A stretch of 64,000 nucleotides of DNA from Bacteroidales bacterium (GTDB taxonomy: Bacteria > Bacteroidota > Bacteroidia > Bacteroidales > BM520): assembly GCA_031276035.1 (NCBI GenBank), contig JAISNV010000028.1:55222-119221 (forward strand). Direction: 5' to 3'. Made by a program: the position numbers and the translations under genes. Below the pieces are notes generated by a model. The model was not told the DNA's origin and did not search any database. It saw nothing but the letters and a program-made list of their open reading frames with translations. Positions within the stretch are counted from its first letter, which is position 1; every line of letters begins with the position of its first letter. Of the stretch, positions 10,384 to 63,200 are shown one piece after another.

Positions 10384-10956
10384 ATGAAAAAAATCTCTTT
10401 ATTTTTTGTATGTGCTTGCATTATAGCAAGTTTCTCGATGGTTTCATGTAAATCATCAAAATCTATATCCAAAGCTACAAAAGCTACGGAAATTGAAGTA
10501 CCGTTTTCCGGCAAGGAATACAAAAGCGATGCAAATTTCTTTAGAGCATCTCAAGTAGGAAGAAGTACTGATTTGGCAACAGCTAAAAAGATTGCTTTGG
10601 CAAATGCAAGAGCTGGAATGGCTCAAGAAGTTCAACAATTAGTTCAAAATGTGGTTAGTCAATATGTTAACCAAAGATCTATCAGTAACAAACAAGAGTA
10701 CGAAAGTAAATTCGAAGAATTGTCGGTATTGGTTACCAAACAAATGCTAAACAACACAAAAACTATGGCAGAAAAAACTTTTATTGAAAAAGACAAAAGT
10801 TATTCTTATTGGGTAGTTGTTGAAATGAGCAAAACGGAATTACTGGGTGGTATTGAAGATAAAATTACCAAAGACGAAAAATTACAACTTGATTTCGATA
10901 AATATCAATTTGAAAAGATATTTAATGAAGAAATGAAGAAGTTTGAAAACAAATAG
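10384..10956 (+). CDS. LPP20-family-like lipoprotein
   Basis: Lipobox FSMVSC. FFRASQVGRSTDLATAKKIALANARAGMAQEVQQLVQNVV matches the LPP20-type helix pattern. The track start at 10378 is TTG; the ATG at 10384 is preferred. Confidence 0.55.
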   Translation: MKKISLFFVCACIIASFSMVSCKSSKSISKATKATEIEVPFSGKEYKSDANFFRASQVGRSTDLATAKKIALANARAGMAQEVQQLVQNVVSQYVNQRSISNKQEYESKFEELSVLVTKQMLNNTKTMAEKTFIEKDKSYSYWVVVEMSKTELLGGIEDKITKDEKLQLDFDKYQFEKIFNEEMKKFENK

Positions 10957-11014
10957 ATCGGAACAGAAAAGATAAAGATATACCTTTACTTTTCTCTCCT
11001 TCTATTTTTATTTC

Positions 11015-11062
11015 AAAAAGCCGAAATAGCCATGAAGAATTTCATGGCTATTTCGGCTTTTT
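11015..11062. terminator. strong bidirectional rho-independent terminator (22-bp perfect inverted repeat, 4-nt loop)
   Basis: aaaaagccgaaatagccatgaa (11015-11036), loop gaat, then ttcatggctatttcggcttttt (11041-11062). An A-tract lies on one side and a T-tract on the other. Confidence 0.8.
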
Positions 11063-11310
11063 ATTTTTATTTTATTTGTAATTTTTAAATTTACTTTTTA
11101 TCTTTGACCGATATTTTAATATATCATTAATTAATAAAGAAATTGAGAAAAATATGGTTAAAACTACAACACAAAATCGACTAATATTTTAAGAAAATTT
11201 ATCGTAAATATTGCATATATTTTTTTATTTTCTTTTATTTATTAAAAATCTTTGATAACCATAATACAATAAACAATATAAATAAAAATACTAACTAAAA
11301 ATTTAAAATT

Positions 11311-33148: not shown

Positions 33149-35458
33149 CTAATTCCTAACGCTAAACTTTCTCATAATTACATTACCATACTCATCGGAA
33201 CAACGCATTATGTAATTACCCGGCGTAGTAATAATAGGCATTTGGTGAAAATGTTTTGTCTTACCTAAATAATCGTCATTGAGATTCCAAAAAATAGTAG
33301 TATTTGGTTGTCGATGTGCTATTTCGAAAATAACCTGTTGCCTGTCGCCTTTTATTCCTACTGGAATTATAACGGTTGTACCTTGATCAGGATAGATAAA
33401 CGACATCATTTGATCATTATTCGAGTGGCAACCGGCCAATAAAGGAGGCATAGAAATATAATCGGCATGCGATTTTTTGTAAAACCATTCCATTACCGGA
33501 GGCAAAACATAATAAATTTCGAAATTGTTCGGATCTAATTCGGTACAAGTAGATTTTACCCTGTATTGTTTCGTATCATCAAGAAATTCTTTCTTATGAT
33601 AAGGGCAAACTCCCGTATGAACTTCGCAATCGGGAATTGTTATAATTTTCGTTTCTTCACAATTTAGTGATTTCGGATAACCGGATACAGAGCAAACTTC
33701 AACTTCAACGGCATCATCGGTAATAGAAACAAAACCGTATCCCTTATTCAATTTATCTATAACTTCAAACATAACCGGAGCCGCAACACCAACACCTGTT
33801 AATCCGGGTCTTCCTTCCCCATCCGAATTACCAATCCAAACACCTACAACATATCTATCAACAACTCCAACGCTCCAAGCATCTCTCAATCCGAAGCTTG
33901 TGCCTGTCTTCCATGCAACTCTCTTCCCCGAATGAAAATTCTGCCAACCTAATTGCTGTTCTGGCCGGTTGACGTTAAGCAATGCTTGAAAAGTAAGAGA
34001 AATTGCAGATGGTGAAAACGGCGGATCAAATAAGAAACTATTTTTCAAGTCTAAAGAGTTAACCGAACAATAAAGTTTCCGTGCCATTGAGCCATAAGTA
34101 TTCGTAATATCAAAAAGACTTGCTTCGGCACCTCCCAGAATTAAAGATAATCCATAATGCTCAGGAGAAAATTTCAATCCGGAAAGTTTGCATTTCTTCA
34201 ATTTATCATAAAATTTATTTACTCCGTAACTTCTTAATAAATATACGAAAGGCATGTTCAGCGACTTAAATAAAGCTTCATCGGCAGTAACAGCTCCAAG
34301 ATATTCGCCCGAGTAATTTTTGGGAGTATATCCCGATATATTTATAGGAATATCCGGAATTATCATTTGCGGCAGTAATTCGCCGGCATCAAGCATACTC
34401 GAATACAAAAAAGGCTTTAAAATACTACCTGTAGAACGCTGCGCCATAATCATGTCAACCATACCCGCATCATTCGCATTCAAATAATTTCCCACATAAG
34501 AAACAATTTTCTCATCAATATAATCGACAACATAAACACAGGCGTTTTCAATTCCGTTTGCTGAATTTATTTTATAATGATTTGAAATTATATTAATTAT
34601 ATCCATTTGCAAATCATAATTAATATCGGAATGATTTTTTTTCTGATCGAAATATTTACCGAATGTCATTGAATAATGAAAAGCATGCATCGGCAAATCG
34701 TACGGAGCAGCCGGAATTTTTTCCAAACTTGCTAAGTCGAAATCATCTTCGGAGAAGTTTTTTACTTTTTGATACTTTTTCGGAAGGTATGATTTGGAAT
34801 CAATCAGACCATAGAGTAATTTATCCCTTTTTATTTGAAGTAATTCACGGTTTTTTCCGGGATGAATAAGCGCCGGGGAATTCGGCAAAACAGCTAAAAC
34901 AGCTAATTCGCTCCATGTTAATCTATCTGCGGAAGTATTAAAATATCTCCAGGCAGCGGCATCCAAGCCCACAACATTTCCCCCGAAGGGAGCATTGGCA
35001 GCGTATAATTGCAAAATTTCATTTTTGGAATACCTTACCTCAAGTCGTAAAGCTAAAATACTTTCAATAATTTTTTCTTTAAAAGTTCGTTCTTTGCCGT
35101 CTCTTGAAAGTCGAACCACTTGCATTGTAATTGTGCTTCCGCCGCGAATAACTTTTTTTGATTGAATATTATCCTTGGCAGCAGTAAATATTGAGACGGG
35201 ATTTATTCCGGAATGATGGAAAAACAATTTATCTTCGTAATGCGTTAAGCAGCGAATGTATTTTTCAGGCAAAACATTCGACGGCGGAAAACGCCATTGT
35301 CCGTCTTCAGCAATCTTAGCGCTCAACAGTCTTCCGTCTGAAGAATAAACAGTTGTCGAATACGGTTTATTAAACTTCGGAACAGGAATACATAGAAAAA
35401 GTAAGAGCGAGACAAGATATACTGAAAAAATTATCAATAATGCCTTACTGTTTTTCAT
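33149..35458 (-). CDS. pbpC: penicillin-binding protein 1C (bifunctional transglycosylase/transpeptidase-like)
   Basis: 769 aa. N-terminal TM; GT51 motifs EDKLFFHHSGINP and RGGSTITMQ; transpeptidase motifs STGSILKP (SxxK) and KTGTS. Sits directly downstream (12 nt) of an alpha-2-macroglobulin gene, the classic pairing. Confidence 0.85.
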   Translation of the reverse strand: MKNSKALLIIFSVYLVSLLLFLCIPVPKFNKPYSTTVYSSDGRLLSAKIAEDGQWRFPPSNVLPEKYIRCLTHYEDKLFFHHSGINPVSIFTAAKDNIQSKKVIRGGSTITMQVVRLSRDGKERTFKEKIIESILALRLEVRYSKNEILQLYAANAPFGGNVVGLDAAAWRYFNTSADRLTWSELAVLAVLPNSPALIHPGKNRELLQIKRDKLLYGLIDSKSYLPKKYQKVKNFSEDDFDLASLEKIPAAPYDLPMHAFHYSMTFGKYFDQKKNHSDINYDLQMDIINIISNHYKINSANGIENACVYVVDYIDEKIVSYVGNYLNANDAGMVDMIMAQRSTGSILKPFLYSSMLDAGELLPQMIIPDIPINISGYTPKNYSGEYLGAVTADEALFKSLNMPFVYLLRSYGVNKFYDKLKKCKLSGLKFSPEHYGLSLILGGAEASLFDITNTYGSMARKLYCSVNSLDLKNSFLFDPPFSPSAISLTFQALLNVNRPEQQLGWQNFHSGKRVAWKTGTSFGLRDAWSVGVVDRYVVGVWIGNSDGEGRPGLTGVGVAAPVMFEVIDKLNKGYGFVSITDDAVEVEVCSVSGYPKSLNCEETKIITIPDCEVHTGVCPYHKKEFLDDTKQYRVKSTCTELDPNNFEIYYVLPPVMEWFYKKSHADYISMPPLLAGCHSNNDQMMSFIYPDQGTTVIIPVGIKGDRQQVIFEIAHRQPNTTIFWNLNDDYLGKTKHFHQMPIITTPGNYIMRCSDEYGNVIMRKFSVRN

Positions 35459-35470
35459 TTCTTATTTAAA

Positions 35471-38400
35471 CTATTTTACCTCAATATTCCTTGCAGGAAT
35501 CACATAGAAAATTTCATTATTGTACATATCATCACAACGAACCTGCGGAACCGTATATTTACCTGAGTGTACGGCTACAAGACTGATTCTGAATTTCAAT
35601 TTCGCACCGGGCATTAAATCAAAATAATAATATGCTCTATCATCGCGAATATCAATAAATCTGATATTCTGATCATAATAATCATCGAACATTCTGTTAT
35701 TTACAATTTCCCAGCCACCGGGTAAAAGATATGTTAATGCATTATCGGTAATACGATATCTTTTATCATTATTTTCAACGGTTATTTCTGCATAAAATTC
35801 CGTATTCTTTGCCAATGATTTCGGATTAATAAGTTGCCCCGATTTATCATAATAATTTACGCTCATATTAATGTAAGCGCCTGATTCTATCGTATCATAT
35901 TCAGCAACATAACCTTTAGCATAAACACTTGCGTAAATCATATCATTAGAAAGATTTTCCACTTCTATTTTGCTATCTTCGTTCGGAACGAAATCAAAGA
36001 CTATAGAAGATCTATTTGTATTTATCTGATAATTTTTATTATCAATGGTGAGATTAGCAACTAAATCCGATTTTGTGAGATTATGTTTTTCGGCATATTT
36101 CCCAAGTACGAATAGATTAAAGGCCGCTGTCTGAGTCGACATCCATTGATTTTTGCCGAACTCACCGGCTAAACTCAGAATATCTTGACGAACAATTTCT
36201 TCATCAGCGTTTATCAACATTTCGGCATAAATATAGAATGCGAAATCTCTGCTGAAACTTCCGTAAGAAATATACCAATCCGACATCATTTTATTAGGTT
36301 CCAATTTAACTTCCGCGAAAATATCCTGTGCAATTTTTGTTTTTCCGGAAAGAGCATAAGTAGCGGAAAGAATTACTTTGGATAATTGTTGCAGATTCTC
36401 TTGTTCTTTAAACCTGTTCATTGCTCCCGTTTCAGGAGTATTATTTAATGCAAGTATGAAAAGTCTATATGCCTGATAAACGTCCGAAGTCGGATAATCG
36501 ACGTTGTAATTCCAAGCCTTAGCTTTGTTGGCGTGATATTTCATTATGCCTGAGAGCATATCGTCCGGAACATTATAACCTCTGTTCTTTGCTTCAATAA
36601 GAAAATGCGAAGCATAAATTTCTGTCCAAGGTACAACATAACTGCCGCCCATCCAGTTGGTCATAGAATTATCATTACGAAGATAATTTTTCAACTTGGA
36701 AATTGCAGCTTCAACATTAAGCTTTATTTCTTTCTGCTTTGCATCATCGAAAGTTATAAAATAATCCAAATAAAGCTGAGGAAAAGCCTTAGAAACAGTT
36801 TGTTCCAAACAACCGTGAGGATATCCTATTAGAAAATCAAGATGAGAGAACAAATCGAGAGGAATAAGAGTGTTCAAAGTAACTTGTCCGCCTGTAGTTC
36901 CATCAATTCCATTGAAAGACAAATCTATTGTTTTTGTAGATTTCGGATTTACTTTTTCCATTACAACAGTTTGCTTTAATGAGAAAGGCATCCTGATAGG
37001 AATAGTTATTTTTGATTCGGCACCAACATTTCCGGCAGAAGCGTTGATAATTAGTTCGGCATTTCCGGAAACTTTCGGGACTCTCAAAGTAAACTCAACT
37101 GTAGCTTCTCCATTACTGTTAGTTGTTACCGACATTGAATTTTTACCGATAATGTTGAGTTTGTTTGTTGAAAGACTGATGTTAATATTTTTGCCGATCA
37201 TGTCGGGAGCAATAACCTGAATCGGAACTATAAATTCATCATTTGGAGAAACGATTTTCGGCGCCGTAGGCATAATCATAATCGGATCTTTTACAATAAT
37301 ATTCTCTTGAGTGCTTCCGTAAGCATTTTTATCATTGGATGCAATGACCATTGCGCGCAACGAGCCTATATATTCGGGAATTTCTATTGAATGTTTGTCT
37401 TTAGCTTTCGCTTTTAGTTCAAATGGACCGTACGAAAAAGCCACGGCCTGAAATCTTTTAGATAAAGCTGTTTCCATATCGTTAAACTCCATATCGCCGC
37501 CGACAGCAAAAACAGAGTTCATCTCACCTTCGTAAGCATCAATAATTCCGGAATAATTATCCCAAGTATTTATTCTCAATGCCTGTTTTGAAAAGATATA
37601 TTTATGCGGATCCGGAGTTTTGTATGAAGTTATTCCGAGTATTCCTTCATCAACCAAAGCCAAAGTGTAATACATCGGTTTGCCGGACGTTTCGGAAACA
37701 GTAATATCAATATTTGTTTTCGATTGTGTTTCTTTAGGCATTGAAATTACAGGTTGAAGTTTTGTTGCAGGATCTTCAACCTTAACCGGAACAATTCCGT
37801 ACAATCTTATAGGAAGATCATTACCGGAAGTATAAGGTTGGAAAAGAATGACATTTATATAAACGTTGGGCAACATTGCTTCAGTAGCAACAATCTTCAC
37901 AAGAGCATCTTCTTTTAAATCAGAGACATTAAAACTCTCAATAACAGTTGAAGAACCTTCTATACAAACAAGGGCTTTTGCTTCCTTATTTGCCGGAAAA
38001 GTAAGATTAATTGTTTCTCCAACCTGATAAGTATCTTTATCTGTTTTTAAAGATAAAATTGCCGGTGCGTCACTGATATTTTTATTTCTATCATAATAAG
38101 GATAATCGAAATTGACGACTTCGGAAAAAACATGACCACCTTTATAATCATTGATAACAATAAGATAAGTTCCCCAATCTTTATCGGCAAAATTTAAAAC
38201 AAATTTCGATTTTCCGTTTTTCATACTTATTACATCTCCCTTAACAGGTCGTTTATAAGTACCGTTTACATATTTAGAAAGGTTTTCATAATCATTATCC
38301 CACCACCAATAGTAATCTAATTTATAAACACTTAGCGACAAATCGGCATTCTCATCATCAATTTTCCCGTCTTCGTTTACAAGCACAACATCGAAAGTCC

Positions 38401-40987
38401 AATCTTGATCCGTATAATAATACGACCAATATTTAGATTGCGGTTCAGGTAATTTTACGCCTACATATCTTTTGAAAGGAGAAAGTACGCTTGATGTTGA
38501 GGAAATGCTGAAATCTCCGTTACCTTCAAAAACTTTAGTAATAAAAACGGCTTTAGAAAATCCCGGTAAAGATAACTTAGAAAGATTTTCCAGATTTATA
38601 TCCGCATTTCCTTTGTCATTGAGTTTCAACGATGAAACCAAATTTACTTCGGTAGGAATAAAATCAGCACTAACATTATTAAACGAATATCCCGGAAAAT
38701 CATTAAAAGATGTTGTTATTGAAGAAACCTTGACATCAACGGAAGCGCTTAAGTTTGAAGCAGGAAGTCCGTTTAACCAAGCAGAATTTAATTTAACTTT
38801 CGGAACTCTATTCAATGATATTGTTTTCGGAAGATTAAGATCAACTTTCAATCTGTTCGGTTTTACTGTTTCAATACGTAAGCCCTTGTGAAAGCTCTGA
38901 TTGCCGAGATGAATGTATGCCGACCATAATCCCGTAGGATCTGAAGGCACTGTTGCAAATGCAAAAGAATAAATATTTCCGACTGTAGAATTATTAACTC
39001 TTTTCAAGACTAATCTGCCCTGACTATCAAAAACTTCCAAAATTACCGGAAAATTCTTAGGTACAGTATTATGAATATCCGAAATAATAAAATTAATATT
39101 AACGGAATCACCCGGACGCCAAACATCACGATTACTGTATATGAATCCGTTAATATTAGATTTAACCAAATTTCCCGAAACATCAAAATTGCTCAAAGAA
39201 AGAGACTGGTTTTTATCAAGTTTAATATATGCTTTGCTGGTTTTGCCGTCACGCACTTCAACAAAATAAGGTACAGACTCCGGTTTAATTTTACATTTAC
39301 CTTCCATATCGGTTTGTGCCTGCCCGATAACCTGTTTTTGAAAATTATACAAAAGCACATCGCAATTAGCAACCGGTTCGGCATTATTAATACCTCTTAC
39401 GAAAACATTTACCAGCTCATCGGTTGCGTATTTTACCGTAACGGCAATATCCGAAACAAGAATATTTTTCTTTATTTCAACATAATTATAGAACGAACGG
39501 CTGCAGGGATCTTTTTCCTCCTGCCACCAATTAGGTCCATAATAATATGATTTATAATCGTAATATTCATTATCCCAATATTTGTCGTCATAATAAGTTT
39601 TACCTACTATTTCGTTATCACAATCAACTGCATAGCAAGTCATATCATAATCCAAAGAAATCTGAAAAAGATCGCCCGGAATAACATCAACATAATCGGC
39701 AATACGAATACTGTAAACTTTCTTCTGCGAGTAATCATCAGCAGAAAGTGCTAATTTCACTTTTCTTTCCAGTCGTCCTACATTTCTTATATAATATGTA
39801 TCACTAAAATTATTATCTTGTAAAAAATCCAAAACATTATTATCATAAATCTTTACAATTCTTAAAATTACGGAATGAAGATTGGCTGCTTCAAAAAACA
39901 TTGTCGCACCGCTTTTATCAGGAACAATATAACCATCGTCAAGCCAATTTATTGACGGTAAATTCGAATCGGTGAAAACAAAACTTAAACTCAAATCATC
40001 GTTTAACTTTTTCGAATTAATATCTTTCAAATTTTCATCAACATACAAATAAATTTCTTCATTAGCAAGATCATTAATATTATCGAAAACAATTGACAAC
40101 AGATTATCATTAATTTGAGTTTTATATGAAGCTGTTTGGGAGATATAAATCAATCCGTTAATATTTGAATTCGGATGCAAAGGATTTGAAAATTCAACGG
40201 TTAGGGTTTTGGTTCCGCTTTTTGCTGAATGATTAAGATATTTAAATTCGGACTTTGCCGGGATTGTATATTTCTTTTCTTCTTTACTATTGATATTCAT
40301 CGGTTCGCCGTTGAAATTAATTGTAAAGGCATATTCTCTATCAGCCCTGACAATATTAGGAACGGTAATTTTAACTCTTTTACTTCCGATTTGTTCCGCA
40401 TAACAAGAATATTTCTTTTGTACATTACTATCAATCAATTTTATAGCATCCTGGATAGTCACAGAATTTACGAATTGCAACTCAAAAGAAAGAGTACAAG
40501 TATCCGTATCGCTTGCAAGATAAAAGGCTTCCGAAACTTTGAAATCCTGCGCTTTAACAATAAAATCGAAAGTAAAATCAGGAAGATTCGTCGGACTGTC
40601 AATAAACTCCTTCAAATTAAATTTACATTTATAAACTTTATCAGCCTGCGGCTTTTCAGCAAATTTATAACCGATTGTATGTTCATCCACCCAATAAACT
40701 TCGCCCTTAATTTTAGGATTGATATTAAAAACCCGAGAATGAATTACCTCTCCAAAAACTTTTTTCAATTTAATATCAGAATTGAAAGAAATTTGAAGAT
40801 CCTGATTTTCGGAAATAAAACCTGATGTGTAACTTGTAATCAACCCGAAATAAACCTCATCAAAATTATTAATACTTTCAATGAATTCATTTTGTTGGTT
40901 TTTTGTTGAATCTTTGTGTGTACAAGCCGATATTAGACTTGATATAATAATCACGCTTGTGATTATTAGCAGATTTCGTGTTTTCAT
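35471..40987 (-). CDS. bacterial alpha-2-macroglobulin family lipoprotein (YfhM-type)
   Basis: 1838 aa. Lipobox LISAC. Thioester context GYPHGCLEQTVSKAFPQLY. Large size and pbpC adjacency. Confidence 0.85.
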   Translation of the reverse strand: MKTRNLLIITSVIIISSLISACTHKDSTKNQQNEFIESINNFDEVYFGLITSYTSGFISENQDLQISFNSDIKLKKVFGEVIHSRVFNINPKIKGEVYWVDEHTIGYKFAEKPQADKVYKCKFNLKEFIDSPTNLPDFTFDFIVKAQDFKVSEAFYLASDTDTCTLSFELQFVNSVTIQDAIKLIDSNVQKKYSCYAEQIGSKRVKITVPNIVRADREYAFTINFNGEPMNINSKEEKKYTIPAKSEFKYLNHSAKSGTKTLTVEFSNPLHPNSNINGLIYISQTASYKTQINDNLLSIVFDNINDLANEEIYLYVDENLKDINSKKLNDDLSLSFVFTDSNLPSINWLDDGYIVPDKSGATMFFEAANLHSVILRIVKIYDNNVLDFLQDNNFSDTYYIRNVGRLERKVKLALSADDYSQKKVYSIRIADYVDVIPGDLFQISLDYDMTCYAVDCDNEIVGKTYYDDKYWDNEYYDYKSYYYGPNWWQEEKDPCSRSFYNYVEIKKNILVSDIAVTVKYATDELVNVFVRGINNAEPVANCDVLLYNFQKQVIGQAQTDMEGKCKIKPESVPYFVEVRDGKTSKAYIKLDKNQSLSLSNFDVSGNLVKSNINGFIYSNRDVWRPGDSVNINFIISDIHNTVPKNFPVILEVFDSQGRLVLKRVNNSTVGNIYSFAFATVPSDPTGLWSAYIHLGNQSFHKGLRIETVKPNRLKVDLNLPKTISLNRVPKVKLNSAWLNGLPASNLSASVDVKVSSITTSFNDFPGYSFNNVSADFIPTEVNLVSSLKLNDKGNADINLENLSKLSLPGFSKAVFITKVFEGNGDFSISSTSSVLSPFKRYVGVKLPEPQSKYWSYYYTDQDWTFDVVLVNEDGKIDDENADLSLSVYKLDYYWWWDNDYENLSKYVNGTYKRPVKGDVISMKNGKSKFVLNFADKDWGTYLIVINDYKGGHVFSEVVNFDYPYYDRNKNISDAPAILSLKTDKDTYQVGETINLTFPANKEAKALVCIEGSSTVIESFNVSDLKEDALVKIVATEAMLPNVYINVILFQPYTSGNDLPIRLYGIVPVKVEDPATKLQPVISMPKETQSKTNIDITVSETSGKPMYYTLALVDEGILGITSYKTPDPHKYIFSKQALRINTWDNYSGIIDAYEGEMNSVFAVGGDMEFNDMETALSKRFQAVAFSYGPFELKAKAKDKHSIEIPEYIGSLRAMVIASNDKNAYGSTQENIIVKDPIMIMPTAPKIVSPNDEFIVPIQVIAPDMIGKNINISLSTNKLNIIGKNSMSVTTNSNGEATVEFTLRVPKVSGNAELIINASAGNVGAESKITIPIRMPFSLKQTVVMEKVNPKSTKTIDLSFNGIDGTTGGQVTLNTLIPLDLFSHLDFLIGYPHGCLEQTVSKAFPQLYLDYFITFDDAKQKEIKLNVEAAISKLKNYLRNDNSMTNWMGGSYVVPWTEIYASHFLIEAKNRGYNVPDDMLSGIMKYHANKAKAWNYNVDYPTSDVYQAYRLFILALNNTPETGAMNRFKEQENLQQLSKVILSATYALSGKTKIAQDIFAEVKLEPNKMMSDWYISYGSFSRDFAFYIYAEMLINADEEIVRQDILSLAGEFGKNQWMSTQTAAFNLFVLGKYAEKHNLTKSDLVANLTIDNKNYQINTNRSSIVFDFVPNEDSKIEVENLSNDMIYASVYAKGYVAEYDTIESGAYINMSVNYYDKSGQLINPKSLAKNTEFYAEITVENNDKRYRITDNALTYLLPGGWEIVNNRMFDDYYDQNIRFIDIRDDRAYYYFDLMPGAKLKFRISLVAVHSGKYTVPQVRCDDMYNNEIFYVIPARNIEVK
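36800..36811 (-). other. thioester motif CLEQ (residues 1393-1396) of the alpha-2-macroglobulin
   Basis: Plus-strand ttgttccaaaca is the reverse complement of TGT TTG GAA CAA, in frame with the start at 40987. Confidence 0.8.
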
Positions 40988-41032: not shown

Positions 41033-41959
41033 TTAATGTAGTTTCTGGCGTTTTTTTAGAAATGTGAGCATAATATTATTATATCCCGTATTAATATCCG
41101 CTTCCACATAATCTATTTGATATTGTTGGCAACGAAGTTTGATTTCTTCATGAAATTTTTTCTGGAAATCAATATATTCTTCACGAATTAATCTAGGATT
41201 AATTTTCAGTTCCGTGTTGGTTTCCAAATCAATAAATTTTGTAGGTTTTTCCGGAAAATTAAAATCTATTTCCTTATATTTATCAACAACGTGAAAAAGT
41301 ACGACTTCGTTTTTATTATATTTCAGATGTTGTAGAGCCGAGAAAACCGAGTTTAAGTCGGCATTATCATCAAACATATCAGTAAATAGAATTACCAAAG
41401 ATCTTTTATGTATTTTTTCTGCGAGAAGATGAATCGAATTTGTTACATCGGTTTTTCTTTTATCCGAAAGTTTAAAATTCTCAATCAATTTTTCATATTC
41501 GGTAAATAAAAATTTTTGATGTTCAATGGAAGATCTTACCGGAGTGAAAAGTTCAATATTATCTGAGAACACAGAAAGTCCGACTGCATCGCGTTGTTGT
41601 TGTAATAGTTTTGTGATACAAGCAGCAGCATAGATAGAGAATGTAATTTTGTTGGGATTATCAACAGTAGGATTATCCATTATCGGATAATACATTGATG
41701 ATGAGTCGTCAATCAGCAGGTAACAACGAAGGTTAGTTTCTTCTTCGAAACGTTTCACAAAGAGTTTATCCGTTCGAGCATACAATTTCCAATCAACATG
41801 TTTTACCGATTCCCCATGATTATATTCTCTATGTTCGGCAAATTCAACAGAAAACCCGTGGAAGGGACTTTTATGCAAACCTGTCATAAAGCCTTCCACC
41901 AATTGGGTTACTATGAATTCCAACGAGTTAAACCGTTGTACCGCTTTATTATCTAGCAC
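41033..41959 (-). CDS. DUF58 domain protein (vWA-like)
   Basis: 308 aa with a GTG start overlapping the trxA stop by 7 nt. GLHKSPFHGFSVEFAEHREYNHGESVKHVDWKLYARTDKLFVKRFEEE matches the conserved DUF58 N-terminal block. Confidence 0.75.
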   Translation of the reverse strand: MLDNKAVQRFNSLEFIVTQLVEGFMTGLHKSPFHGFSVEFAEHREYNHGESVKHVDWKLYARTDKLFVKRFEEETNLRCYLLIDDSSSMYYPIMDNPTVDNPNKITFSIYAAACITKLLQQQRDAVGLSVFSDNIELFTPVRSSIEHQKFLFTEYEKLIENFKLSDKRKTDVTNSIHLLAEKIHKRSLVILFTDMFDDNADLNSVFSALQHLKYNKNEVVLFHVVDKYKEIDFNFPEKPTKFIDLETNTELKINPRLIREEYIDFQKKFHEEIKLRCQQYQIDYVEADINTGYNNIMLTFLKKRQKLH

Positions 41960-43118: not shown

Positions 43119-43238
43119 TATTTATTTATTTTATTTATTTAGGTTTACAAAAGTAAGAAAAAAATACTGGCATAAAAAAAAGCTAAAAAATTTTAACATT
43201 TTTTTTGGCAAACACATTGCAAATAAAAAAAAGATATT

Positions 43239-43246
43239 TATCTTTG
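43239..43246 (+). promoter_or_regulatory. candidate -7 box (TATCTTTG) for the Omp28-like gene
   Basis: Exact TAnnTTTG 55 nt upstream of ATG 43301. Confidence 0.4.
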
Positions 43247-43300
43247 CGTAAATATTCTTTTTTATTAAAATTTAATTTATCAACTAATAATGAATGTCTT

Positions 43301-45034
43301 ATGAAAAAATTTACTCTTTTATCATTACTTATTCTAATTTGTTGTTGTTTTACAATAACAGCACAAAATTATGTGTCTACGGACCCCAGCAACAAAAACG
43401 TTCTTTTGGAAGAATTTACAGGCGTAAACTGCCAGTATTGTCCTTTAGGTCATTTATATGCCAATCAATATGCAGATGCTAACCCAGGTAGATTCTGGGC
43501 AATAAATATTCACACCGGTGGTTATGCCTCTACAAGTTATCCTAATTTCAACACTTCAGACGGAGCCACAATCGCAAGTGGTTTTTCAATAGGCGGGTAT
43601 CCGGCAGGTACATTAAACAGAAACGGCACAGCAACAATCACACCAAGTACTAATGCTTGGTGGAATAATGCAACTACTATGCTTAATCAACCTGCGGTTG
43701 CAAATATCGCAGGCGTGTGTATCATTGATCCAGCAACACGTATTGCAACAATTAACATTGAGGTTTACTATACTGCCAATGGTGCAGGTTCATCTAATAA
43801 AGTCACAGTAGCAATGTTACAAAACAATATTTTGGGTAGTCAATCCGGGATGAGTTATAATCCTGGACAAGTTATTAATGGTCAATACAATCACATGCAC
43901 GCATTACGTGATATTATAACAAATACATGGGGTGATGAAATAACTGATATTTCTCAAGGATCTTTGGTTGAATTAACTTATACCTATGAAATTCCTGATA
44001 TTATTGGTAGTCCTAATGGAATTGAAGTTATTGTTGATGATTTGGAGTTTTTAGCGTGGGTAGCTGAAACCAATTATCAAATAATTACTGTAAATGAACT
44101 TGAAATAATTATTGGCAGCGACAAACCGATAAATCCGGCAATAAAAGAATTAACACAACAAGAAGGTATCTCTTGTGAAGATACGGAAATGATAGAAATC
44201 GAAATATTAAATGGCGGTGTTGATGAAATTACTTCAATAGAATTTGAAATAGATGTTGACGGATTTGTAACGACTCAAACATGGGAAGGAAGTATCCCTT
44301 CATATTTAAAAGGATTGGTTGAAATGGAGATTGGAGTGAACACAGGAGAACAAGTACTCACAATAACAATAATCAAAGTTAATGGAACTACAATTGAGCA
44401 AAACGGTGCTACAACAAAAACAATCAATATTACGCACGGCGAATGGTCGGCAATTGAAGATCCTATGGAATATATTACCTTAAAATTATGGCAAGACAAA
44501 TTCGGCCATCAAATTACATGGAAAGTATTCGCATCGGATATGACTGTAATAGCCAGCGGAGGCCCATACGGAATATTACCTAACACTACACCGGTATTAC
44601 GCGAACATGTAATTTCTATTGAAAATGATGATTGTATTAAATTTATCGTATACGACTCCGGTTGCAATGGTTTCAACAATACTCAAGGTGCAGGTCATTA
44701 TGAATTAATCCATAGCAACGGTAACATTATTTTTGAAAGTGATGCTACTTTTGAATGTGAAGAAAGCGCAACATTCAATGTGAAAAGAAAACCCGATGGT
44801 ATCACAGATAATAATAAAACAACCATTTATCCAAATCCAGCAAATGATTATATAAACATTACCGATATTAGTAATGTTAAATCAATCAACATATATAATG
44901 TTGCAGGAAAACTCGTTCTTCAATCAACAGCTACTAACGAAGTAAATATTTCAACCCTTAATAAAGGTGTATATTTCTTAAAATTGATGAATAACGATAA
45001 TACTCAAACTAATATTAAATTTGTAAAAGAGTAA
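43301..45034 (+). CDS. Omp28-related protein with T9SS C-terminal sorting domain
   Basis: Start moved to ATG 43301 (MKKFTLLSLLILICCCFTITAQ). LLEEFTGVNCQYCP motif typical of Omp28-related proteins. C-terminus IYPNPANDYINIT...GVYFLKL...KFVKE is a T9SS type-A sorting domain. Confidence 0.6.
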   Translation: MKKFTLLSLLILICCCFTITAQNYVSTDPSNKNVLLEEFTGVNCQYCPLGHLYANQYADANPGRFWAINIHTGGYASTSYPNFNTSDGATIASGFSIGGYPAGTLNRNGTATITPSTNAWWNNATTMLNQPAVANIAGVCIIDPATRIATINIEVYYTANGAGSSNKVTVAMLQNNILGSQSGMSYNPGQVINGQYNHMHALRDIITNTWGDEITDISQGSLVELTYTYEIPDIIGSPNGIEVIVDDLEFLAWVAETNYQIITVNELEIIIGSDKPINPAIKELTQQEGISCEDTEMIEIEILNGGVDEITSIEFEIDVDGFVTTQTWEGSIPSYLKGLVEMEIGVNTGEQVLTITIIKVNGTTIEQNGATTKTINITHGEWSAIEDPMEYITLKLWQDKFGHQITWKVFASDMTVIASGGPYGILPNTTPVLREHVISIENDDCIKFIVYDSGCNGFNNTQGAGHYELIHSNGNIIFESDATFECEESATFNVKRKPDGITDNNKTTIYPNPANDYINITDISNVKSINIYNVAGKLVLQSTATNEVNISTLNKGVYFLKLMNNDNTQTNIKFVKE

Positions 45035-45058
45035 CAAACAATTAATAATTTATATAAG

Positions 45059-45088
45059 GAGGTTACCCGAAAGAGTAACCTCTTTTTT
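45059..45088 (+). terminator. rho-independent terminator
   Basis: gaggttac (45059-45066), 8-nt loop, gtaacctc (45075-45082), then TTTTTT. Confidence 0.7.
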
Positions 45089-45253: not shown

Positions 45254-46288
45254 ATGAAAAGCCATCTAATTTTATTCGCGTTTATTTTAAGTATCTCTTT
45301 TTTAGGCGCAACCTGCGACCGTATTCCTCCCGAGCCGGAAGGCCCGACACCGGAAGAACCAACAACACCCGATGATCCTACAGAGCCCGAAGAACCAATA
45401 TTAGTATTGACTGAAAATATTACATCCGGACGGGTAAATACTCTAAATAAATTTTCCTTCAAATACGGAAGAATGGATGTTTATGCTAAATTGCCGAAAA
45501 CGGGAAACGGCTTGTGGCCGGCAATATGGCTTTTAGGTGCCGATTTCAACGGTTATTCTAATGACGGAAGCGAATTAGTAAACACTACTAACGCCAATTG
45601 GCCGGAATGCGGTGAAATTGATATTATGGAAATGGGAAATGCCGAAGGAATAAATCTAAATACTCAAGATAGATTCTTATCGAGAGGTACACACTGGGGT
45701 TCCGTTATTAACGGCGGTCATCCCGCATATTCTATAAACAACAATTATAATTCGAGCTTACAGGATGATTTTCATCTTTTCGTTTTTACCTGGGATGAAA
45801 CTTATATTCGAATGTATCTTGATCCGCAACTTGATGGAAATTTAAATCTGTTACCAAACAATTCTCCTTATTACGAAATACTTATTAATGTATATGATGG
45901 TGAATTCCCTGTCGGAGAATATTTTCATAAAGAATATTTTATTTTATTAAATATAGCTGCTGGCGGACATTTTACCGGTGTATATGATGTAAATAATATT
46001 ACCGCATTAAATGAAGAAAATGATTATCAAGCAAGAATGTATATTGATTATGTAAAAGTTTATGAAAATATAAAAACAAATTCCAATTCTCCGGAGGAAG
46101 CTTTAGTTTGGCAGGATTTATTTGAAAATGATGCTGTTGATGAAAGTAAATGGAACATTGAAATCAATGGTAATGGGGGTGGAAATAATGAATTGCAAAA
46201 ATATTCTCGTAACAATGTATCCGTAGGCATTGAACCGGAAACCGGTAAAAAATGTCTTGTAATAACTGCAAAAAGAGAGTATGAATAA
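45254..46288 (+). CDS. glycoside hydrolase family 16 lipoprotein (laminarinase/lichenase-like), apparently circularly permuted
   Basis: Lipobox FLGATC followed by a Pro/Glu/Thr linker. GH16 blocks appear in the order FSFKYGRMDVYAKLP / WPAIWLLG / WPECGEIDIME / FHLFVFTW / ILLNIAAGG / YIDYVKVY, and only then WNIEINGNGGGNNELQKY...CLVITAKRE, which is normally N-terminal. Confidence 0.75.
   Translation: MKSHLILFAFILSISFLGATCDRIPPEPEGPTPEEPTTPDDPTEPEEPILVLTENITSGRVNTLNKFSFKYGRMDVYAKLPKTGNGLWPAIWLLGADFNGYSNDGSELVNTTNANWPECGEIDIMEMGNAEGINLNTQDRFLSRGTHWGSVINGGHPAYSINNNYNSSLQDDFHLFVFTWDETYIRMYLDPQLDGNLNLLPNNSPYYEILINVYDGEFPVGEYFHKEYFILLNIAAGGHFTGVYDVNNITALNEENDYQARMYIDYVKVYENIKTNSNSPEEALVWQDLFENDAVDESKWNIEINGNGGGNNELQKYSRNNVSVGIEPETGKKCLVITAKREYE
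45614..45631 (+). other. GH16 catalytic motif E-I-D-I-M-E (residues 121-126)
   Basis: gaaattgatattatggaa, in frame with ATG 45254; matches ExDxxE. Confidence 0.8.
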
Positions 46289-49568: not shown

Positions 49569-51047
49569 ATGAATTACATTATCTCATCGCAAAAAATTAG
49601 CATACAAGAAATCGAAACAATTATCCGTGAAAATCACACGATTTCACTTTCCGAAGAATCAAAAAATAAGATAGTAAAATGCAGGGAATATCTTGATAAG
49701 AAACTTGCCGCATCTCAAAATCCGATTTACGGAATTAATACCGGTTTCGGTTCTCTTTGTAATACAAGCATTGATGAAAAAGATCTTTCTCAGTTGCAAA
49801 TCAACCTGGTTATGTCGCATGCATGCGGCTGCGGCGAAGAAGTACCGCAGGAAATTGTAAAGATAATGTTACTTCTAAAAGTTAAATCCCTTTCTTTCGG
49901 ACATTCGGGAGTAAAACTTGATACAGTTGAAAGATTAATTTATTTTTTTAATAATGATATTACTCCTGTAGTTTACAAACAAGGTTCGTTAGGTGCTTCC
50001 GGCGATCTGGCTCCTTTGGCACATCTATCACTGCCTTTGCTTGGAATGGGAGAAGTATATTATAAGGGTGAGAAATATAATTCTTCGGATATACTTTCTA
50101 AGTTTAATTTGCAAGCTATAGGTTTAGCCTCAAAAGAAGGATTAGCGTTATTAAACGGCACGCAATTTATGCAAGCTTTCGGAGTTTACAGTTTGATAAA
50201 AGGAAATAACCTGAGCAATTTGTCGGATCTTATCGCTTCCGTTTCCCTCGAAGCTTTCGACGCCAAAATAGATCCTTTTGATCCGCTCTTGCACACCATC
50301 AGAAATCATAAAGGTCAAATTGAAACCGCCAAAAATATCAGCGAGATTTTATCAGACAGCAAAATAATTCATCGTGAGAAGAAACATGTTCAGGATCCTT
50401 ACTCTTTCAGATGCATTCCACAAGTTCACGGAGCTTCCAAAGATGCAATCGAATATGCTACAAGAATTTTTGAGGAAGAGATTAACGCAGTAACTGACAA
50501 CCCGACTATTTTTCCGGAGGAAGATAAGATTTTATCCGGAGGAAATTTTCACGGACAGCCTCTGGCAATATCAATGGATTTTCTTGCAATTGCACTTGCC
50601 GAACTTGCAAATATTTCGGAAAGAAGAACTTACCAATTGATTTCCGGAAAACGCAATTTACCGAGTTTTCTTATTGCAAAATCTGGATTAAACTCAGGAT
50701 TTATGATTCCGCAATATGCAGCCGCTTCAATAGTTAGCCAGAACAAACAACTCTGCACCCCCGCTTCGGTAGATTCCATCGAATCATCTCAAGGGCAGGA
50801 AGATCATGTTAGTATGGGAGCAAACAGTGCAACTAAGCTGTTTACGGTGACTAATAATGTTGAAACGGTTTTAGCAATTGAATTAATGACAGCAGCACAA
50901 GCTTTAGACTTCAGAAAAGATGCCAAGGCATCAACTAAGATCAGAGAATTCGTTTCCGAATACAGAAAACATGTTACTTTCGTAGAAAACGACAGGTATC
51001 TTCATCCTGATATAAAAAAATCAGTAGAATTTATAGATAAGTTCTAA
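49569..51047 (+). CDS. hutH: histidine ammonia-lyase
   Basis: 492 aa. MIO-forming GSLGASGDLAPLAH motif, plus NTGFG and QEDHVSMG blocks. Confidence 0.9.
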   Translation: MNYIISSQKISIQEIETIIRENHTISLSEESKNKIVKCREYLDKKLAASQNPIYGINTGFGSLCNTSIDEKDLSQLQINLVMSHACGCGEEVPQEIVKIMLLLKVKSLSFGHSGVKLDTVERLIYFFNNDITPVVYKQGSLGASGDLAPLAHLSLPLLGMGEVYYKGEKYNSSDILSKFNLQAIGLASKEGLALLNGTQFMQAFGVYSLIKGNNLSNLSDLIASVSLEAFDAKIDPFDPLLHTIRNHKGQIETAKNISEILSDSKIIHREKKHVQDPYSFRCIPQVHGASKDAIEYATRIFEEEINAVTDNPTIFPEEDKILSGGNFHGQPLAISMDFLAIALAELANISERRTYQLISGKRNLPSFLIAKSGLNSGFMIPQYAAASIVSQNKQLCTPASVDSIESSQGQEDHVSMGANSATKLFTVTNNVETVLAIELMTAAQALDFRKDAKASTKIREFVSEYRKHVTFVENDRYLHPDIKKSVEFIDKF

Positions 51048-57208: not shown

Positions 57209-60200
57209 TTAATTCTTCACCCATTTTCCTGAAATAATTTCATCTTCCACAATAACTTTATAAATATAAATTCCTTGTTTTATGGCCGATGTATTTATAG
57301 TGTTAGAACCTTTTTGAAGTCTAATAGAAATTTGTTTAGAACCGTTAATATTAAACAATTCGAAATTGTAAGACTCAATTTCAGAAACAACAGTAATATA
57401 ATCTTTTCCAGGATTAGGGTAAACATGTATTTTATTTACATTATTGTCCACATTGTTGACTTTCAATTGTTGATTTTCAATTATAGGAATACTTTTTTCC
57501 ATTGGCATTTCAGTTTCTATACAAATATCATAAAAGAAGCATAAAATATTTTTCGCCATGGCAGATGCAAGGCCGTCTACTTCCAAAGCAATTTTCTCCA
57601 AAGTTATTATTTCCTTTTCATCTAATTGCGCTAAAGACTTTCCTTGTTTTCTAATACTCTCTCTAAAATTATAATAAGAAAAATAATTTTGATTTTCATC
57701 TAATTCAATTTCAGACAAATCGAATGTTTTGGGGATATCCTTTATTATATCCTTTGCTTTTCCATATTCTTTTTCCAATATATGGGTTTCTGCTAAGAGA
57801 TATTTCTGTAAAGGTTCTTGAACAATACTATACCATGGGTTTAAATCAAGAAGTTCAACAATACTGTCGTTTTTAACAAAAGAAATATTATTATTACTCA
57901 AATTAGACATTTCAATGCTGAATCCTGATATTTTATTGTAAATAAACAAAGCCTCTTCCAATAATATTTCATCTTCAAAATAACCAGTAGAAAAATATTC
58001 TTTTAAAACTTTGTCGTAACCTTTTTCAAAAAAGGTATTTTGCGTGTTATTATAATCAATATTAATACTTTTATACTGTTTTATGGGATCATCTATTATT
58101 ATATATATTGAATCGCACAAAGTCGACTCGCATTTATTTTCATTTTTTGATAAAAACACTGTAATATTCGAGCTAATAGATACGGGTTCTAACATATTAT
58201 TATCAAAATGATAATACTGTATAGACGTTAATAGATTTCCACAATAAATGTTACAATCAGTTGTATTTGAGAAAATATTATCAGCACCTTTTGTTTTATC
58301 TCCTTGAGAAGATCTGACTATACCAGTATTATCAATATATATATCGTATTTATTGTTTTCAAAAGAATTACAGTTAAATTGTAATCCTTTTATTTTGGCT
58401 ATATTGTTATCTACTGTCGTGCCATTAATCCCACTTACATAAATACCATAGGTTAAATTTTGAAAATAATTTCTATAGATTATGTTTTCATCTGTACCTG
58501 AATTGTTTATATACATACCTGTAGTAATATAATTAGATTTTCCATCCGTGAATATATCGAATTGATTTTCTTCAATCAAATATCCGCTGCAATTTGATAA
58601 ATGTATGCCAGACCATGAATTACCGCTTAGAGGAGTTGTAAAGTTGAAAGTTGATCTTGTTATTTGCATGTTATTTATTGCAGAAGCCTTTATACCTCTA
58701 AGGTTATTTCTAAATTCACAATTATCAATGACAATATTTGCTGCTGTGGAACTATGTTCTCCATATTCAATAGCACAATTAAAGCCTTGAAAGGTTGATC
58801 TTGTTAATATGCCATCGCATTCACAACCCTGATTAGGGGAAAGTCTACAAACTTCTAAAACTTTAAAACCTGCCGATAAAGAGTATATGGCTCTTCCTGC
58901 ATGTGCTCCGCTCTTTAAATATTCAAAATTACATCCTGCGAATCTAACCCCTTCAACTTCGCATAACCTTATGTGTGAAACAAAAGTATATGGATTCTTA
59001 AACATATAATCGTCAATATAAAAATGGGTATCAATAATATAACTTGTATTTGAACAAACTTCACCATTATGAATATAACGGTAATCTTCCATTATTAACG
59101 AATAAAGATTATTCCTGAATATTGAGTTATTAATATTAACAATACCACCACCATCAAAATTTGATGTCATAATATCACCAGCTTTTATTGCAACAACTGC
59201 ATTTTCTATACAAGCGCCATTTCTCATGATAACCTGCCCTTGGCAATCGGGATGTTGAACCATACTTTTATTTCCATAAACTTCAACTCCGCGCCAGAAC
59301 TCATTTCTGCAAGCGTTTGACAATTTGCCGCCGTCAATAATTAATTTAGCGCCTGGTTTAACGATGATTTTACAATCAGGTGCCATAAATAATACAGAAT
59401 TATGAATAGCTAGAGTTGCACCTGACTCAACAATAACATCTCCGCAAAATTTATGAGCAGTTGTCCATATAGTTGTATCACTAATAGTTATACCTGCACA
59501 AGTCGCTTTAAAATATTCTCCGGTATTTTGTGGATTTGCTCTTTCGCTTCCCCAACCTATAAAAATAGAATTACCTTTAGTTTCCCAAACATATACTTTG
59601 TTACCTGAGCCAGTAATTATTTCATTTTTTCCATTATTATCAATATCTGCTACACAAGGTGAACCAGGAATATCTTCATCTACATTTAAAGGAAATCCTA
59701 ATACCTTTCTTCCACTCATTTTATAAGCCTCAATTAATTTACCACTTGCAACAATAATTTCTAATTCTAGATCATTATCAACATCTGCAAGGATTGGGGT
59801 TATTTTTTCAGGATAAAGATTTTCTATTGCTATAGTATTGATTAAATTGCCATTATGATCCCAAATTTTGACTTGATTGGACCCAAAAACAACAACTTCT
59901 AAATAATTATCTCCATCCAAATCACCCACAGCAATTTCCTTGGATAATAAACCTTGAGGATGTGAAATTGTCTGTGTATCATTCCATCCGTTTAGGGGAA
60001 TACCATTACGATTAATTGCAACAACCCTATCTGAATTGCTTGTGGTATTAAAAACAACCGTTAAAACATCATTATAGCCATCATTATCTAAGTCACATAC
60101 TATTACTGAGTTTTCAAAACTATAACCTGATAAATTATAAAACGGTTGATCTCCATAATCAGTCCCGTCATATTTCCAAATATATATACCTGATGTTTGG

Positions 60201-63200
60201 GCGTTTTTATAACAACCGATTATTTCTTTATTGCCGTCATTATTTATATCTGCAACTGCAAGAGCACCGTATGTGCCTCCAACCTCCCATGTGTCTCCAA
60301 CTTCCGGAATATTATATTTTATTGTACCGTCTGAATTATATACAGCTATTCCACCATATTCCGAATAAAATATATTTTCCATTAACCCGTCTGCATCTAA
60401 GTCTGCAATTATAGGAGACCTGTAGCAAGGATTGTTTAACGGCGAGTTGTGTTTCCATTCTTCTATATTCGTCGGATTATCCTGAATGGGTATGGCAGAA
60501 TGACAAAAAATATTGTTAGGCGAATGAAATTTTCTCGTCATTGACACTATTTTATAACCGCCAAACGGCTGTAATTCTCCGATTGCCGGTGTACATTGAA
60601 TTTTATTACCAATTTCAGCTAAACCACTATATGTTGTAGGATTACCATCAATGTCAAACAATTCGCTACCATCTGGTTTTAAGCCTATCAGAAATCCATT
60701 ATTTATACCGGCAATTTCTATACTTGCAAAAATTTCTTTTTCATTATCCGTATTTACGTCAATTGCATTTATTGAACTTTGAATTCTACCTCCACTATAC
60801 ATAGAGACAGGAAAACCATCCATTATTGAATAAGAAGTCCATGCCAATAGAGGATCCGACAAAGGTCCGTCATTGCCGCTGGTATCAACTGCTGATACCC
60901 TATAATAATATTTTGTAAGCACATCCAAGCCTGAGTCTTCATAAAACGCAGCCGGAAATACAAATGTGTTTATTTTCTCATAATCGCCAACCTCGCTGTC
61001 ATCAATAGGATTTACATAACAACGATAAACATTATAACCTTTTATATAAGATAATGGTGTTAAGGGTGCCCATGTTAATTTTATAGATGTACTATCGCCA
61101 GTAAAATCAATACTTGAAATGTTTGCAGGTTCTTTTGTCAGATCGAAATTATAATTCCATAATTTACCATATTCATTGATAACTTGCAAGTTAAAATTTA
61201 ATGCTTGTCCTGAAATATATGAAGGAGAAATAGAAAATTTATAAACAGTAGTATTTTTTTCTGTTTCATGTTTTTTAATTTCTGGATAGTTTCTTGGTGA
61301 TGCGGAACAGTTTGTAATATATTGACTATTTGACGTAAGTATTGCAGTAACACCTGTTGCAGTAGCTTTACCTTTATTAAACAATTCAATATTAATACTT
61401 ACAGTTGCTCCGGGGGCGATTTTACCTGTTAATATGATTTTATTTCTTAATTCTAAGTCAGGGTTAAATATTTCAATATTAAAATTATCATGGTAAGTAT
61501 AAGTTGTTCCGCTAATAGTTGCGGTTATTTGAAGCATGAATTTTATTTGATCTAATTCGTTAAGAAATATTTCCGGGGCATCCGGGGCAATTGAAAAAAC
61601 ATATTTGGCAGGTGAACTTTTTGTACTTCCGGCACTTATTGTTCCAAAATTTGAAGTATTTGTTAAGATTGTAATGTATTGAGAGTTACAGGTTAAAATC
61701 GTTGAAACATTTGTTGCACTTGTTGTTGCAGAATTTTTTAATTGTATTGTCAGTTCAATTGTTTCTCCCGCATCTAATTGTCCATCACTGTTCCCTATAC
61801 TATTATCGGCATCGTCATCATCGAAATCAAGGTTGGTAATATAAATATTTCTATTAACGGTTACATTACCGGTATGTTCGTAAGGTATGTAATTTTGTGC
61901 AGTAACAGTAACATTGACTATTCCTGTGGTATGTGGTGTAATAATAAAAGTATGCGGAGAGGTTGAGCCTGTTGATGTGATAGTTTCAACCAAATAACAT
62001 TCATTTCCTTTTTGAATACAAACAGTCGCTGTTTTACCTGCGGAAAAGGTGTTTTTTAAAACAACACTAATAGTTACGTTACCATTTGTATCAGGATTAT
62101 TTATAGAAATATTTTGTACAGGAGAAGTTTGCGGGGTTGCTGTCCATATAGGCATTTCGGGATCACCAAGGAGAGTGAGACGGCGTCTCTCATCATTATC
62201 ACTTGGGTCTGGAGCTTGTTGAAAGGTAGTAGCAATACAATTCGTAGTATTGCTATTATATAAGGCCTGGCAAAAACGTTTGAATTGAACGTGTTCTCCA
62301 TAATAACCGGCATCTGAGTTTCCGATAAAGGCAACTCCACCCCCATTTGGATTATTAATATAATGTTCTGCAATACAGTCATAATTAAATGATGCGGGCT
62401 CGCAACCATTTGAAAACATGATCTGTTGAAAATTAGTATTTATTAAATTAGCTGAATCAAAATCAGCATTTATAAAACTTTTGTTTTCTATTCTTGATAT
62501 TCCCATACTCTTAATAGCAGAGTGTTGTATGTGATGAACTATATGAAAGTTACCCAAACCTGACTCACCGCCATTATTTAGACAAGATTTAGCATTAGTT
62601 TTATTCAAGCTTTGATTACCCGGAATACAAATTCCACCTGGCCTAATGACAAACGAAGAAATAGATACATAATCTATATATATATCAGAACCACCTGCAG
62701 AAACTCCTTTTATTCTAATTTTAGTTATACCTTGAGGTAAATTATAATAGATATGTTCTCTCCAACCTAAATATTTAGTATTGGCTCTGTATCTCTGTAT
62801 TATACCCCAAACCGGCACAACCCATTCACCATTTAATTCATATTCAATAACCAGTTTGTCGCCTGTACTGTCAATATTATCATGATATACAGAAATTTTT
62901 ATTGTTTGATTATTGGGAATATTTATTACAGGTGATATTAAATATGAATAGTTACCATTTCCAATGCTTGATGCTTTGAATTTCATTACCATATCTCCAT
63001 GATGAACTCCTATAGAAGAAGGCGGGGGTACTCTTTCCCAATTATTGTCACTCTTTTGCCAACCATCAGGCAAATCAGTTGCAGGGTTTATATTTGTTTC
63101 AAAACTTTCATCCAAATAAGCAGTCAAATCACAATGAGGGTCCGTAAAATTATGGTAAGCATAAGGTGTGCTGTATGGATCGATAATATTAAACTGACAA

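Follow-up and report, generated by a model that had tools for sequence, protein, structure and literature searches.

Can a glycoside hydrolase family 16 (GH16) domain be complete when the residues that normally open it stand at the end of the chain, or is such a gene the remnant of a broken tandem? The question is raised by an open reading frame (ORF) at 45254..46288 (+) in a window of 64,000 nucleotides, the whole stretch of DNA analysed here, from contig JAISNV010000028.1 of a Bacteroidales bacterium. The ORF is intact and starts with ATG, and its product of 344 amino acids (followed by a stop codon) is 100% identical to NCBI entry MDR2084737.1 from a Bacteroidales metagenome-assembled genome (MAG), labelled merely 'glycoside hydrolase family 16 protein'. 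A reading made earlier from the letters alone (the sequence-only reading) had proposed a natural circular permutation of GH16. The ORF is confirmed here as such a permutant, with the first ~60 residues of the domain moved to its end. The Pfam model PF00722 matches it with 37.9 bits (cutoff 22; E = 1.7e-09) over residues 51-192 only, and the permutation thus escapes routine annotation. The lichenase of Fibrobacter succinogenes is the classic natural example of a circularly permuted jelly-roll, and engineered GH16 permutants fold normally; a permuted GH16 enzyme is therefore unsurprising in principle.

Order and conservation of the two segments

The swapped order of the segments is evident from comparison with solved structures, and the two-segment alignment to a laminarinase structure that the sequence-only reading had anticipated was obtained. 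In a phmmer search against the PDB chains, residues 55-269 of the query match 5nbo_A 93-271 while residues 281-342 match 5nbo_A 34-90, and two-segment swapped matches are also given by 7kr6, 8xph and 4dfs. With a family profile built, like alignment A1, from 45 family members, nearly all top GH16 chains of the PDB are matched in two stretches. Separate hidden Markov models (HMMs) for the 'core' (residues 55-271) and the 'N-segment' (residues 283-343) were mapped on 275 collected proteins: 50 of them, including this ORF, carry the core before the N-segment (C-N), 191 have the canonical N-C order, and ~20 are multi-GH16 proteins. In the window, the core occupies 45416..46066 (+), from ITSGRVNT to YIDYVKVY (~5nbo_A 93-271), and the relocated N-terminal segment 46100..46282 (+), from ALVWQDLF to CLVITAKRE (~5nbo_A 34-90). 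One core and one N-segment make up exactly one domain, with no part duplicated or absent. The positions read earlier from the sequence, namely those of the ORF, of EIDIME at 45614-45631 and of the start of WNIEING at 46151, all agree with the translation.

The same layout could result from a truncated or pseudogenised tandem, in which a second GH16 domain was cut off and left only its start as the C-terminal segment, while the first domain lost its N-terminal strands; such a product would be defective. GH16 gene pairs and multi-GH16 proteins are indeed common among the relatives. However, when both HMMs were run over all six frames of the window, they matched this ORF, the core with E = 1.4e-102 and the N-segment, at the C-terminus and far beyond chance, with E = 1.7e-33. 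They found no other GH16 core or N-segment fragment in any frame: the best other hits have E >= 0.39, and the N-segment model gives no match better than E = 2.4 in the rest of the window. The next gene, 98 bp downstream, encodes an unrelated glycosyltransferase-like protein. Moreover, start and stop positions are kept in ~50 clusters of homologs with invariant catalytic and N-segment residues, and the structure model packs the segment into the fold with a predicted local distance difference test (pLDDT) score of 83-98. The truncated tandem, named by the sequence-only reading as the alternative to permutation, is extremely improbable.

The permuted architecture is shared by ~50 non-redundant homologs (clusters) from several sources, with 41-79% identity in the core. 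The domain starts at ITSGRVNT, shortly past the signal-peptide Cys, in all 45 aligned members; the protein ends 1-5 residues past CLxLTAK in 40 of 44 cases, and the linker from the YVDYVKV-type motif to LxWxDxF spans 4-14 residues across the family (regular-expression search). All 45 aligned homologs share E121, D123 and E126 without exception, and equally invariant are W88, P89, W92, W116, P117, H147 and W148 of the core and W300, N301, E303, G308-N311, E313, Q315 and C334 of the relocated segment. Both pieces are thus under purifying selection. The invariant residues of the GGGNNELQ loop at 46175..46198 (+), that is G308, G309, G310, N311, E313 and Q315, further indicate strong constraint on the relocated segment. 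A C-terminal domain is found in none of the permuted members.

Predicted fold, cut site and origin

Structure prediction from the single sequence gave a pLDDT of 32.6, and AlphaFold2 with alignment A1 returned a confident, closed model (mean pLDDT 88.6; predicted template modelling score (pTM) 0.83), in agreement with the closed jelly-roll expected for a permutation. On this model, the permuted chain is predicted to adopt the same jelly-roll (concanavalin-like) fold as canonical GH16, and all top 50 Foldseek matches in the PDB are GH16 proteins. Alternatively, the relocated segment might complete the jelly-roll of a partner chain in trans, as a domain-swapped dimer, and the linkers of just 4-6 residues in some family members would suit such an exchange. 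Yet the old GH16 termini are adjacent, the engineered permutant and the Fibrobacter enzyme close in cis with the model colinear to both, and the confident model (pTM 0.83) is that of a monomer. A domain swap is hence very unlikely.

The Foldseek search is dependent on sequence order, and its alignment lengths, the most informative outcome of the analysis, bear on the position of the cut. Canonical GH16_3 chains (5nbo, 8xph, 4dfs, 3azx, 4crq and others) align over 186-229 columns that cover the core only, the top canonical matches (214-226 columns) having a target-normalised template modelling score (TMt) of 0.64-0.68. The Fibrobacter lichenase entries (1mve, 1zm1, 3axd/e, 3h0o, 3hr9 and 2r49) align colinearly over 290-299 columns and the engineered permutants 1cpm and 1cpn, also colinear with the model, over 287-289; their TMt is 0.73-0.77 (0.76-0.77 for 1cpm and 1cpn) at 15-16% identity. 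As an internal control, the top 50 contain neither non-permuted lichenases nor the permutants with cuts at residues 84 and 127 (1AJK, 1AJO). Since the whole-domain colinear match is confined to the Fibrobacter entries and 1cpm/1cpn, the model places the cut in the same beta-hairpin as in the Fibrobacter enzyme, between the ...LxLTAKxE strand and the xTSGRxNT strand.

Like the Fibrobacter 1,3-1,4-beta-D-glucanase (1MVE, 1ZM1, 3AXD), the protein starts at the xSG strand, ~50-65 residues before the catalytic motif, and carries the relocated ~60 residues last, ending in ...CLVITAKRE where the Fibrobacter enzyme has ...LILALTRKG. The engineered permutant 1CPM/1CPN of a Bacillus hybrid lichenase has the same hairpin cut with ~58 residues relocated; unlike this gene, it is artificial and lichenase-derived (GH16_21). 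PMC8513176 cites Hahn et al. 1994 for it and describes 1cpm as the Bacillus enzyme with its permutation at Phe59, by which 58 residues changed place. Fibrobacter residue 7 lines up with Bacillus residue 59.

The N-terminal ILVLTEN and the C-terminal CLVITAKRE had been regarded as two remnants of one strand, left by duplication and trimming, and this idea is not supported. ILVLTEN (45398..45418 (+), residues 49-55) is a lineage-specific N-terminal extension: a similar stretch occurs only here and in P0002, which is 71% identical, while at this site the residues of the remaining 43 aligned members are unrelated. The two DNA stretches are identical at 16 of 33 positions in a genome with 32% G+C, and residues 52-58 and 333-343 form two separate strands in the model. 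These strands probably pair as partners, judging from the canonical hairpin register (LILTAERK-GD-KIYSGRINS in 5nbo).

The common hairpin and connectivity would also fit a single ancient permutation shared by this clade and the Fibrobacter lichenase. Against this, the nearest relatives are canonical Bacteroidales GH16 proteins (from Paludibacteraceae, Dysgonomonadaceae and similar groups, many with a tail of the type IX secretion system (T9SS)), with identities of 55-57% for the core and 58-73% for the N-segment, so that both halves share 55-73% with them. Identity to the Fibrobacter enzyme is 15-16%. Among the PDB chains, the family profile detects neither the Fibrobacter nor the Bacillus lichenases at E <= 10, whereas canonical Bacillus lichenases and the Fibrobacter enzyme match each other at E ~1e-22. 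Additionally, the catalytic strand reads EIDIME (EXDXXE, with a beta-bulge) here and EVDIE (EXDXE) in Fibrobacter, a difference that is among the earliest splits between GH16 subfamilies (Viborg et al. 2019, PMC6827312). The ORF thus shares the topology of Fibrobacter-type permuted lichenases (GH16_21 branch) and differs from them in lacking both EXDXE and detectable sequence kinship. A common ancient origin is most unlikely. Because of the canonical relatives, the non-detection by the profile and the motif difference, two separate permutation events at one site are the best reading, and it is supported that the permutation arose in Bacteroidales GH16_3-type enzymes independently of the Fibrobacter lichenase. 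Of the earlier suggestion of an independent event with a different breakpoint, the independence stands with the canonical relatives and the motif, and the different breakpoint gives way to the hairpin shared in the Foldseek comparison.

In the permuted chain, the ~60 domain-opening residues (LVWxDxF...GGGNNELQ...CLxLTAK) come after YVDYVKVY, the last canonical strand, and are attached to it by a short linker, here the new junction at 46067..46099 (+) (residues 272-282, ENIKTNSNSPE) that joins the old C-terminus to the old N-terminus. The chain begins at the TSGRVNT strand, canonically the stretch right after the relocated residues. Since the two ends of the GH16 jelly-roll lie next to each other, the linker would close the old termini and the new ones would lie at the former beta-hairpin turn; the fold and active site are therefore expected to be unchanged. 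The most plausible route would start from GH16 copies in tandem, fused or duplicated, from which the first N-segment and the last core were then lost. In related genomes, canonical GH16 genes stand next to each other on one strand, a few to ~40 bp apart, at loci L010 (3451-5541), L011 (1034-3785), L022 (5842-7870) and L027 (4903-6927). Head-to-tail same-strand GH16 pairs are found in many Bacteroidota genomes, also at L020, L033, L065, L072 and L074, and the single polypeptides P0203 and P0239 have the order N-C-N-C with inter-domain linkers of 23-33 residues. Since tandem genes and N-C-N-C fusions occur in relatives, the fusion-and-trimming route is realistic. Very large proteins with 3-4 complete GH16 domains also exist (P0134 with 2585 amino acids, P0135, P0136, P0138, and locus L063 at 4660-11082), in which N-C is repeated with a spacing of ~370 residues (~550 in part of P0134).

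Predicted function and distribution of the clade

The catalytic beta-bulge motif E121-I-D123-I-M-E126 (EXDXXE) was located by alignment at 45614..45631 (+). By homology, E121 would be the nucleophile and E126 the acid/base, with D123 alongside. EIDIME lines up with GEIDIMEMG of 5nbo, its last Glu being the residue changed to Ala in 7kr6. These two entries belong to BoGH16MLG, a mixed-linkage glucan (MLG) endo-glucanase of Bacteroides ovatus, which is the best match for both pieces (E = 8e-34; E = 2.8e-62 with the profile) and which we take to be a member of GH16_3. Like the window gene, BoGH16MLG is a Bacteroidota enzyme of the surface lipoprotein type with a near-identical WPxCGEIDIMEMG strand. 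Unlike it, BoGH16MLG has canonical N-C order and resides in a SusC/D polysaccharide utilization locus (PUL); no PUL surrounds the permuted window gene. Canonical Bacteroidales relatives (P0137, P0043 from Paludibacteraceae, P0038) likewise have N-C order, many with PF18962 tails. Among solved structures, laminarinases and beta-1,3(4)-glucanases come closest, including 8va4 with the entry name CapGH16_3. The GH16_3 pattern consists of the beta-bulge EXDXXE and 'WPA ... WXX ... WPX' (Viborg et al. 2019, PMC6827312); the ORF has EXDXXE, WPA (88-90), WLL (92-94) and WPE (116-118), the last E being outside the X residues listed in that paper (PMC6827312). In comparison, the Fibrobacter lichenase (EVDIE) falls in the EXDXE branch of GH16_21 type, while the present protein has the EXDXXE bulge and laminarinase-type loops; it also differs in host phylum, in its N-terminal lipoprotein tether and in having no C-terminal extension.

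On these sequence features, the protein is likely a retaining endo-beta-1,3(4)-glucanase of the laminarinase/mixed-linkage-glucanase type. An intact fold could also serve another function, such as a non-hydrolytic glycan-binding surface lipoprotein, a transglycosylase or an enzyme for another substrate. No PUL context points to a substrate; GH16 enzymes are capable of transglycosylation (Viborg 2019, PMC6827312), and a 15-residue insertion (window 45551-45595, ~residues 100-114, within ...FNGYSNDGSELVNTTNANWPEC...) stands before the WPxCGEID loop when compared with 5nbo and most family members. This insertion is confined to the subclade P0001-P0007 plus P0010; it directly precedes the loop that borders the negative subsites and might alter them. 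Nevertheless, the catalytic triad and the aromatic residues of WPA/W..../WPx are invariant, and every top match by structure or sequence is either a laminarinase or the B. ovatus MLG endo-glucanase. A different function is improbable, though less so than the alternatives discussed above.

Taken as a whole, it is quite probable that the gene encodes a catalytically competent, permuted GH16_3-like endo-beta-glucanase that would be anchored to lipid and was permuted independently of Fibrobacter at an equivalent hairpin. Several points count against this view. The equivalence of the breakpoint is based on a predicted model and Foldseek alignment lengths. We infer the activity, the substrate (beta-1,3 / beta-1,3-1,4 glucans) and the lipidation, as also the duplication route; the lipobox G-A-T-C is non-canonical, and a SusC/D PUL is found neither at this site nor in three homolog contexts. 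In a neighbour-joining (NJ) tree of the core, the canonical P0137 falls inside the permuted group and the permuted P0270 outside it, and exact monophyly of the permuted clade is recovered in 0 of 100 bootstraps (mean Jaccard index 0.89).

In the same tree, 48 of the 49 permuted cores form one bipartition with one canonical intruder. P0137 carries subclade-specific signatures, for example INVYxGxYPVGxYFH. The clade is not cleanly monophyletic on the NJ tree. A single origin of the Bacteroidales permuted clade is likely, with a few origins or a reversion as the alternatives.

The permuted clusters number ~50 at 90% clustering; at 50% clustering, the best 150 of 1,304 strong GH16 matches (E <= 1e-30) include ~7 permuted representatives. 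Named sources are Bacteroidales MAGs or single-cell genomes (Tannerellaceae, Prevotellaceae and 'Odoribacter sp. OttesenSCG'). Among the matches listed from 185,579 GTDB species representatives, the 80 best loci contain at least one permuted locus (L005). A permuted carrier comes from sample JGI 3300009784, a higher-termite gut metagenome (PMC7800795). Within the clade, a cadherin-like beta-sandwich domain (PF12733) separates the lipid Cys from the permuted GH16 in P0012 and P0013, the relocated segment of P0241 contains an insertion of ~30 residues, and P0270 is a divergent singleton without the GGGN loop.

To our knowledge, the textbook case for natural GH16 permutation rests on one enzyme, the F. 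succinogenes lichenase. No description of a permuted laminarinase-type (GH16_3) clade was found in the literature, the roadmap of GH16 subfamilies makes no mention of permutation (PMC6827312), and no solved structure of a permuted GH16_3-type enzyme was found among the PDB chains. The evidence leans somewhat towards an undescribed clade of permuted GH16_3-type beta-glucanases, restricted for the most part to uncultured gut Bacteroidales, including those of termite guts, that arose independently of Fibrobacter at the identical hairpin. If so, GH16 would be a rare documented instance of convergent circular permutation at one preferred site, which is also the engineered residue-59 site. A second independent lineage in another subfamily would mark this hairpin as an evolutionarily accessible 'soft spot' of the jelly-roll and would offer a natural replicate with canonical relatives (~55% identity), tandem-gene precursors and fused N-C-N-C intermediates. 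The relocated termini might turn the active-site cleft to another orientation with respect to the lipid anchor. Moreover, such enzymes would be a warning that domain-model annotation and subfamily schemes based on sequence-similarity networks or phylogeny can truncate or misplace permuted proteins. They would also be candidates for beta-glucan degradation in gut Bacteroidales and templates for the placement of termini in GH16 fusions.

Gene layout and genomic neighbourhood

The N-terminal part of the gene suggests a surface lipoprotein, given the conserved N-terminal Cys and an acidic Pro-rich tether. The predicted signal peptide (45254..45316 (+)) would end at the putative lipoprotein Cys21, in the form MKSHLILFAFILSISFLGAT followed by C, as placed from the sequence and an alignment column; the signal peptide with its terminal Cys reads MKSHLILFAFILSISFLGATC in the translation. 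At least 70% of family members have a Cys in the Cys21 column. A flexible tether rich in Pro, Glu and Thr follows at 45317..45397 (+) (residues 22-48, DRIPPEPEGPTPEEPTTPDDPTEPEEP), with low to medium pLDDT, and would join the lipid anchor to the catalytic domain; the chain continues past it with ILVLTENITSGRVNT. At its C-terminal end the protein reads ...WNIEINGNGGGNNELQKYSRNNVSVGIEPETGKKCLVITAKREYE.

The neighbouring genes encode an Omp28/T9SS protein, a glycosyltransferase-like protein, an M23 peptidase, HutH, a DUF58 protein, an alpha-2-macroglobulin and PBP1C, and neither SusC/SusD nor another carbohydrate-active enzyme is found near the GH16 gene. As the gene is outside any SusC/SusD PUL, its context gives no clue to the substrate. 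The contexts of the homologs are mutually unrelated, the sole synteny being with the closest genome, in which the glycosyltransferase-like and M23 genes are kept downstream. A HutH-type histidine ammonia-lyase is encoded at 49569-51047 (+), and a urocanase lies at a similar distance in the closest relative (L003, 14182-16191). The positions of these two genes suggest local synteny beyond the trio of GH16, glycosyltransferase-like and M23 genes.

A hairpin with a T-run was noticed by eye in the intergenic sequence at 45058..45088 (+), right past the Omp28/T9SS gene (GGAGGTTAC-CCGAAAGA-GTAACCTC-TTTTTT), and a consensus scanner did not flag it at this position. Tentatively, the GH16 gene may form its own transcription unit. 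The upstream gene at 43205-45034 (+) encodes a member of the Omp28 family that carries a T9SS sorting tail and has a weak NCBIfam match to 'Omp28-related selenoprotein' (E = 4e-08, far below the cutoff).

Farther upstream, the stretch 33149-40987 (-) encodes an alpha-2-macroglobulin of 1838 amino acids (MG2, bMG3/5/6/10 and A2M domains), immediately upstream of a PBP1C-type penicillin-binding protein with transglycosylase, transpeptidase and BiPBP_C domains. Alpha-2-macroglobulin and PBP1C are a conserved pairing, and a DUF58/VWA protein (41033-41959) adjoins them here. At 57209-63757 (-), an ORF of 2182 amino acids combines a gingipain-like Peptidase_C25 domain, FG-GAP repeats and a T9SS C-terminal sorting domain; the C25 domain is matched from the very first residue of the ORF as listed, and the true start may therefore lie upstream.

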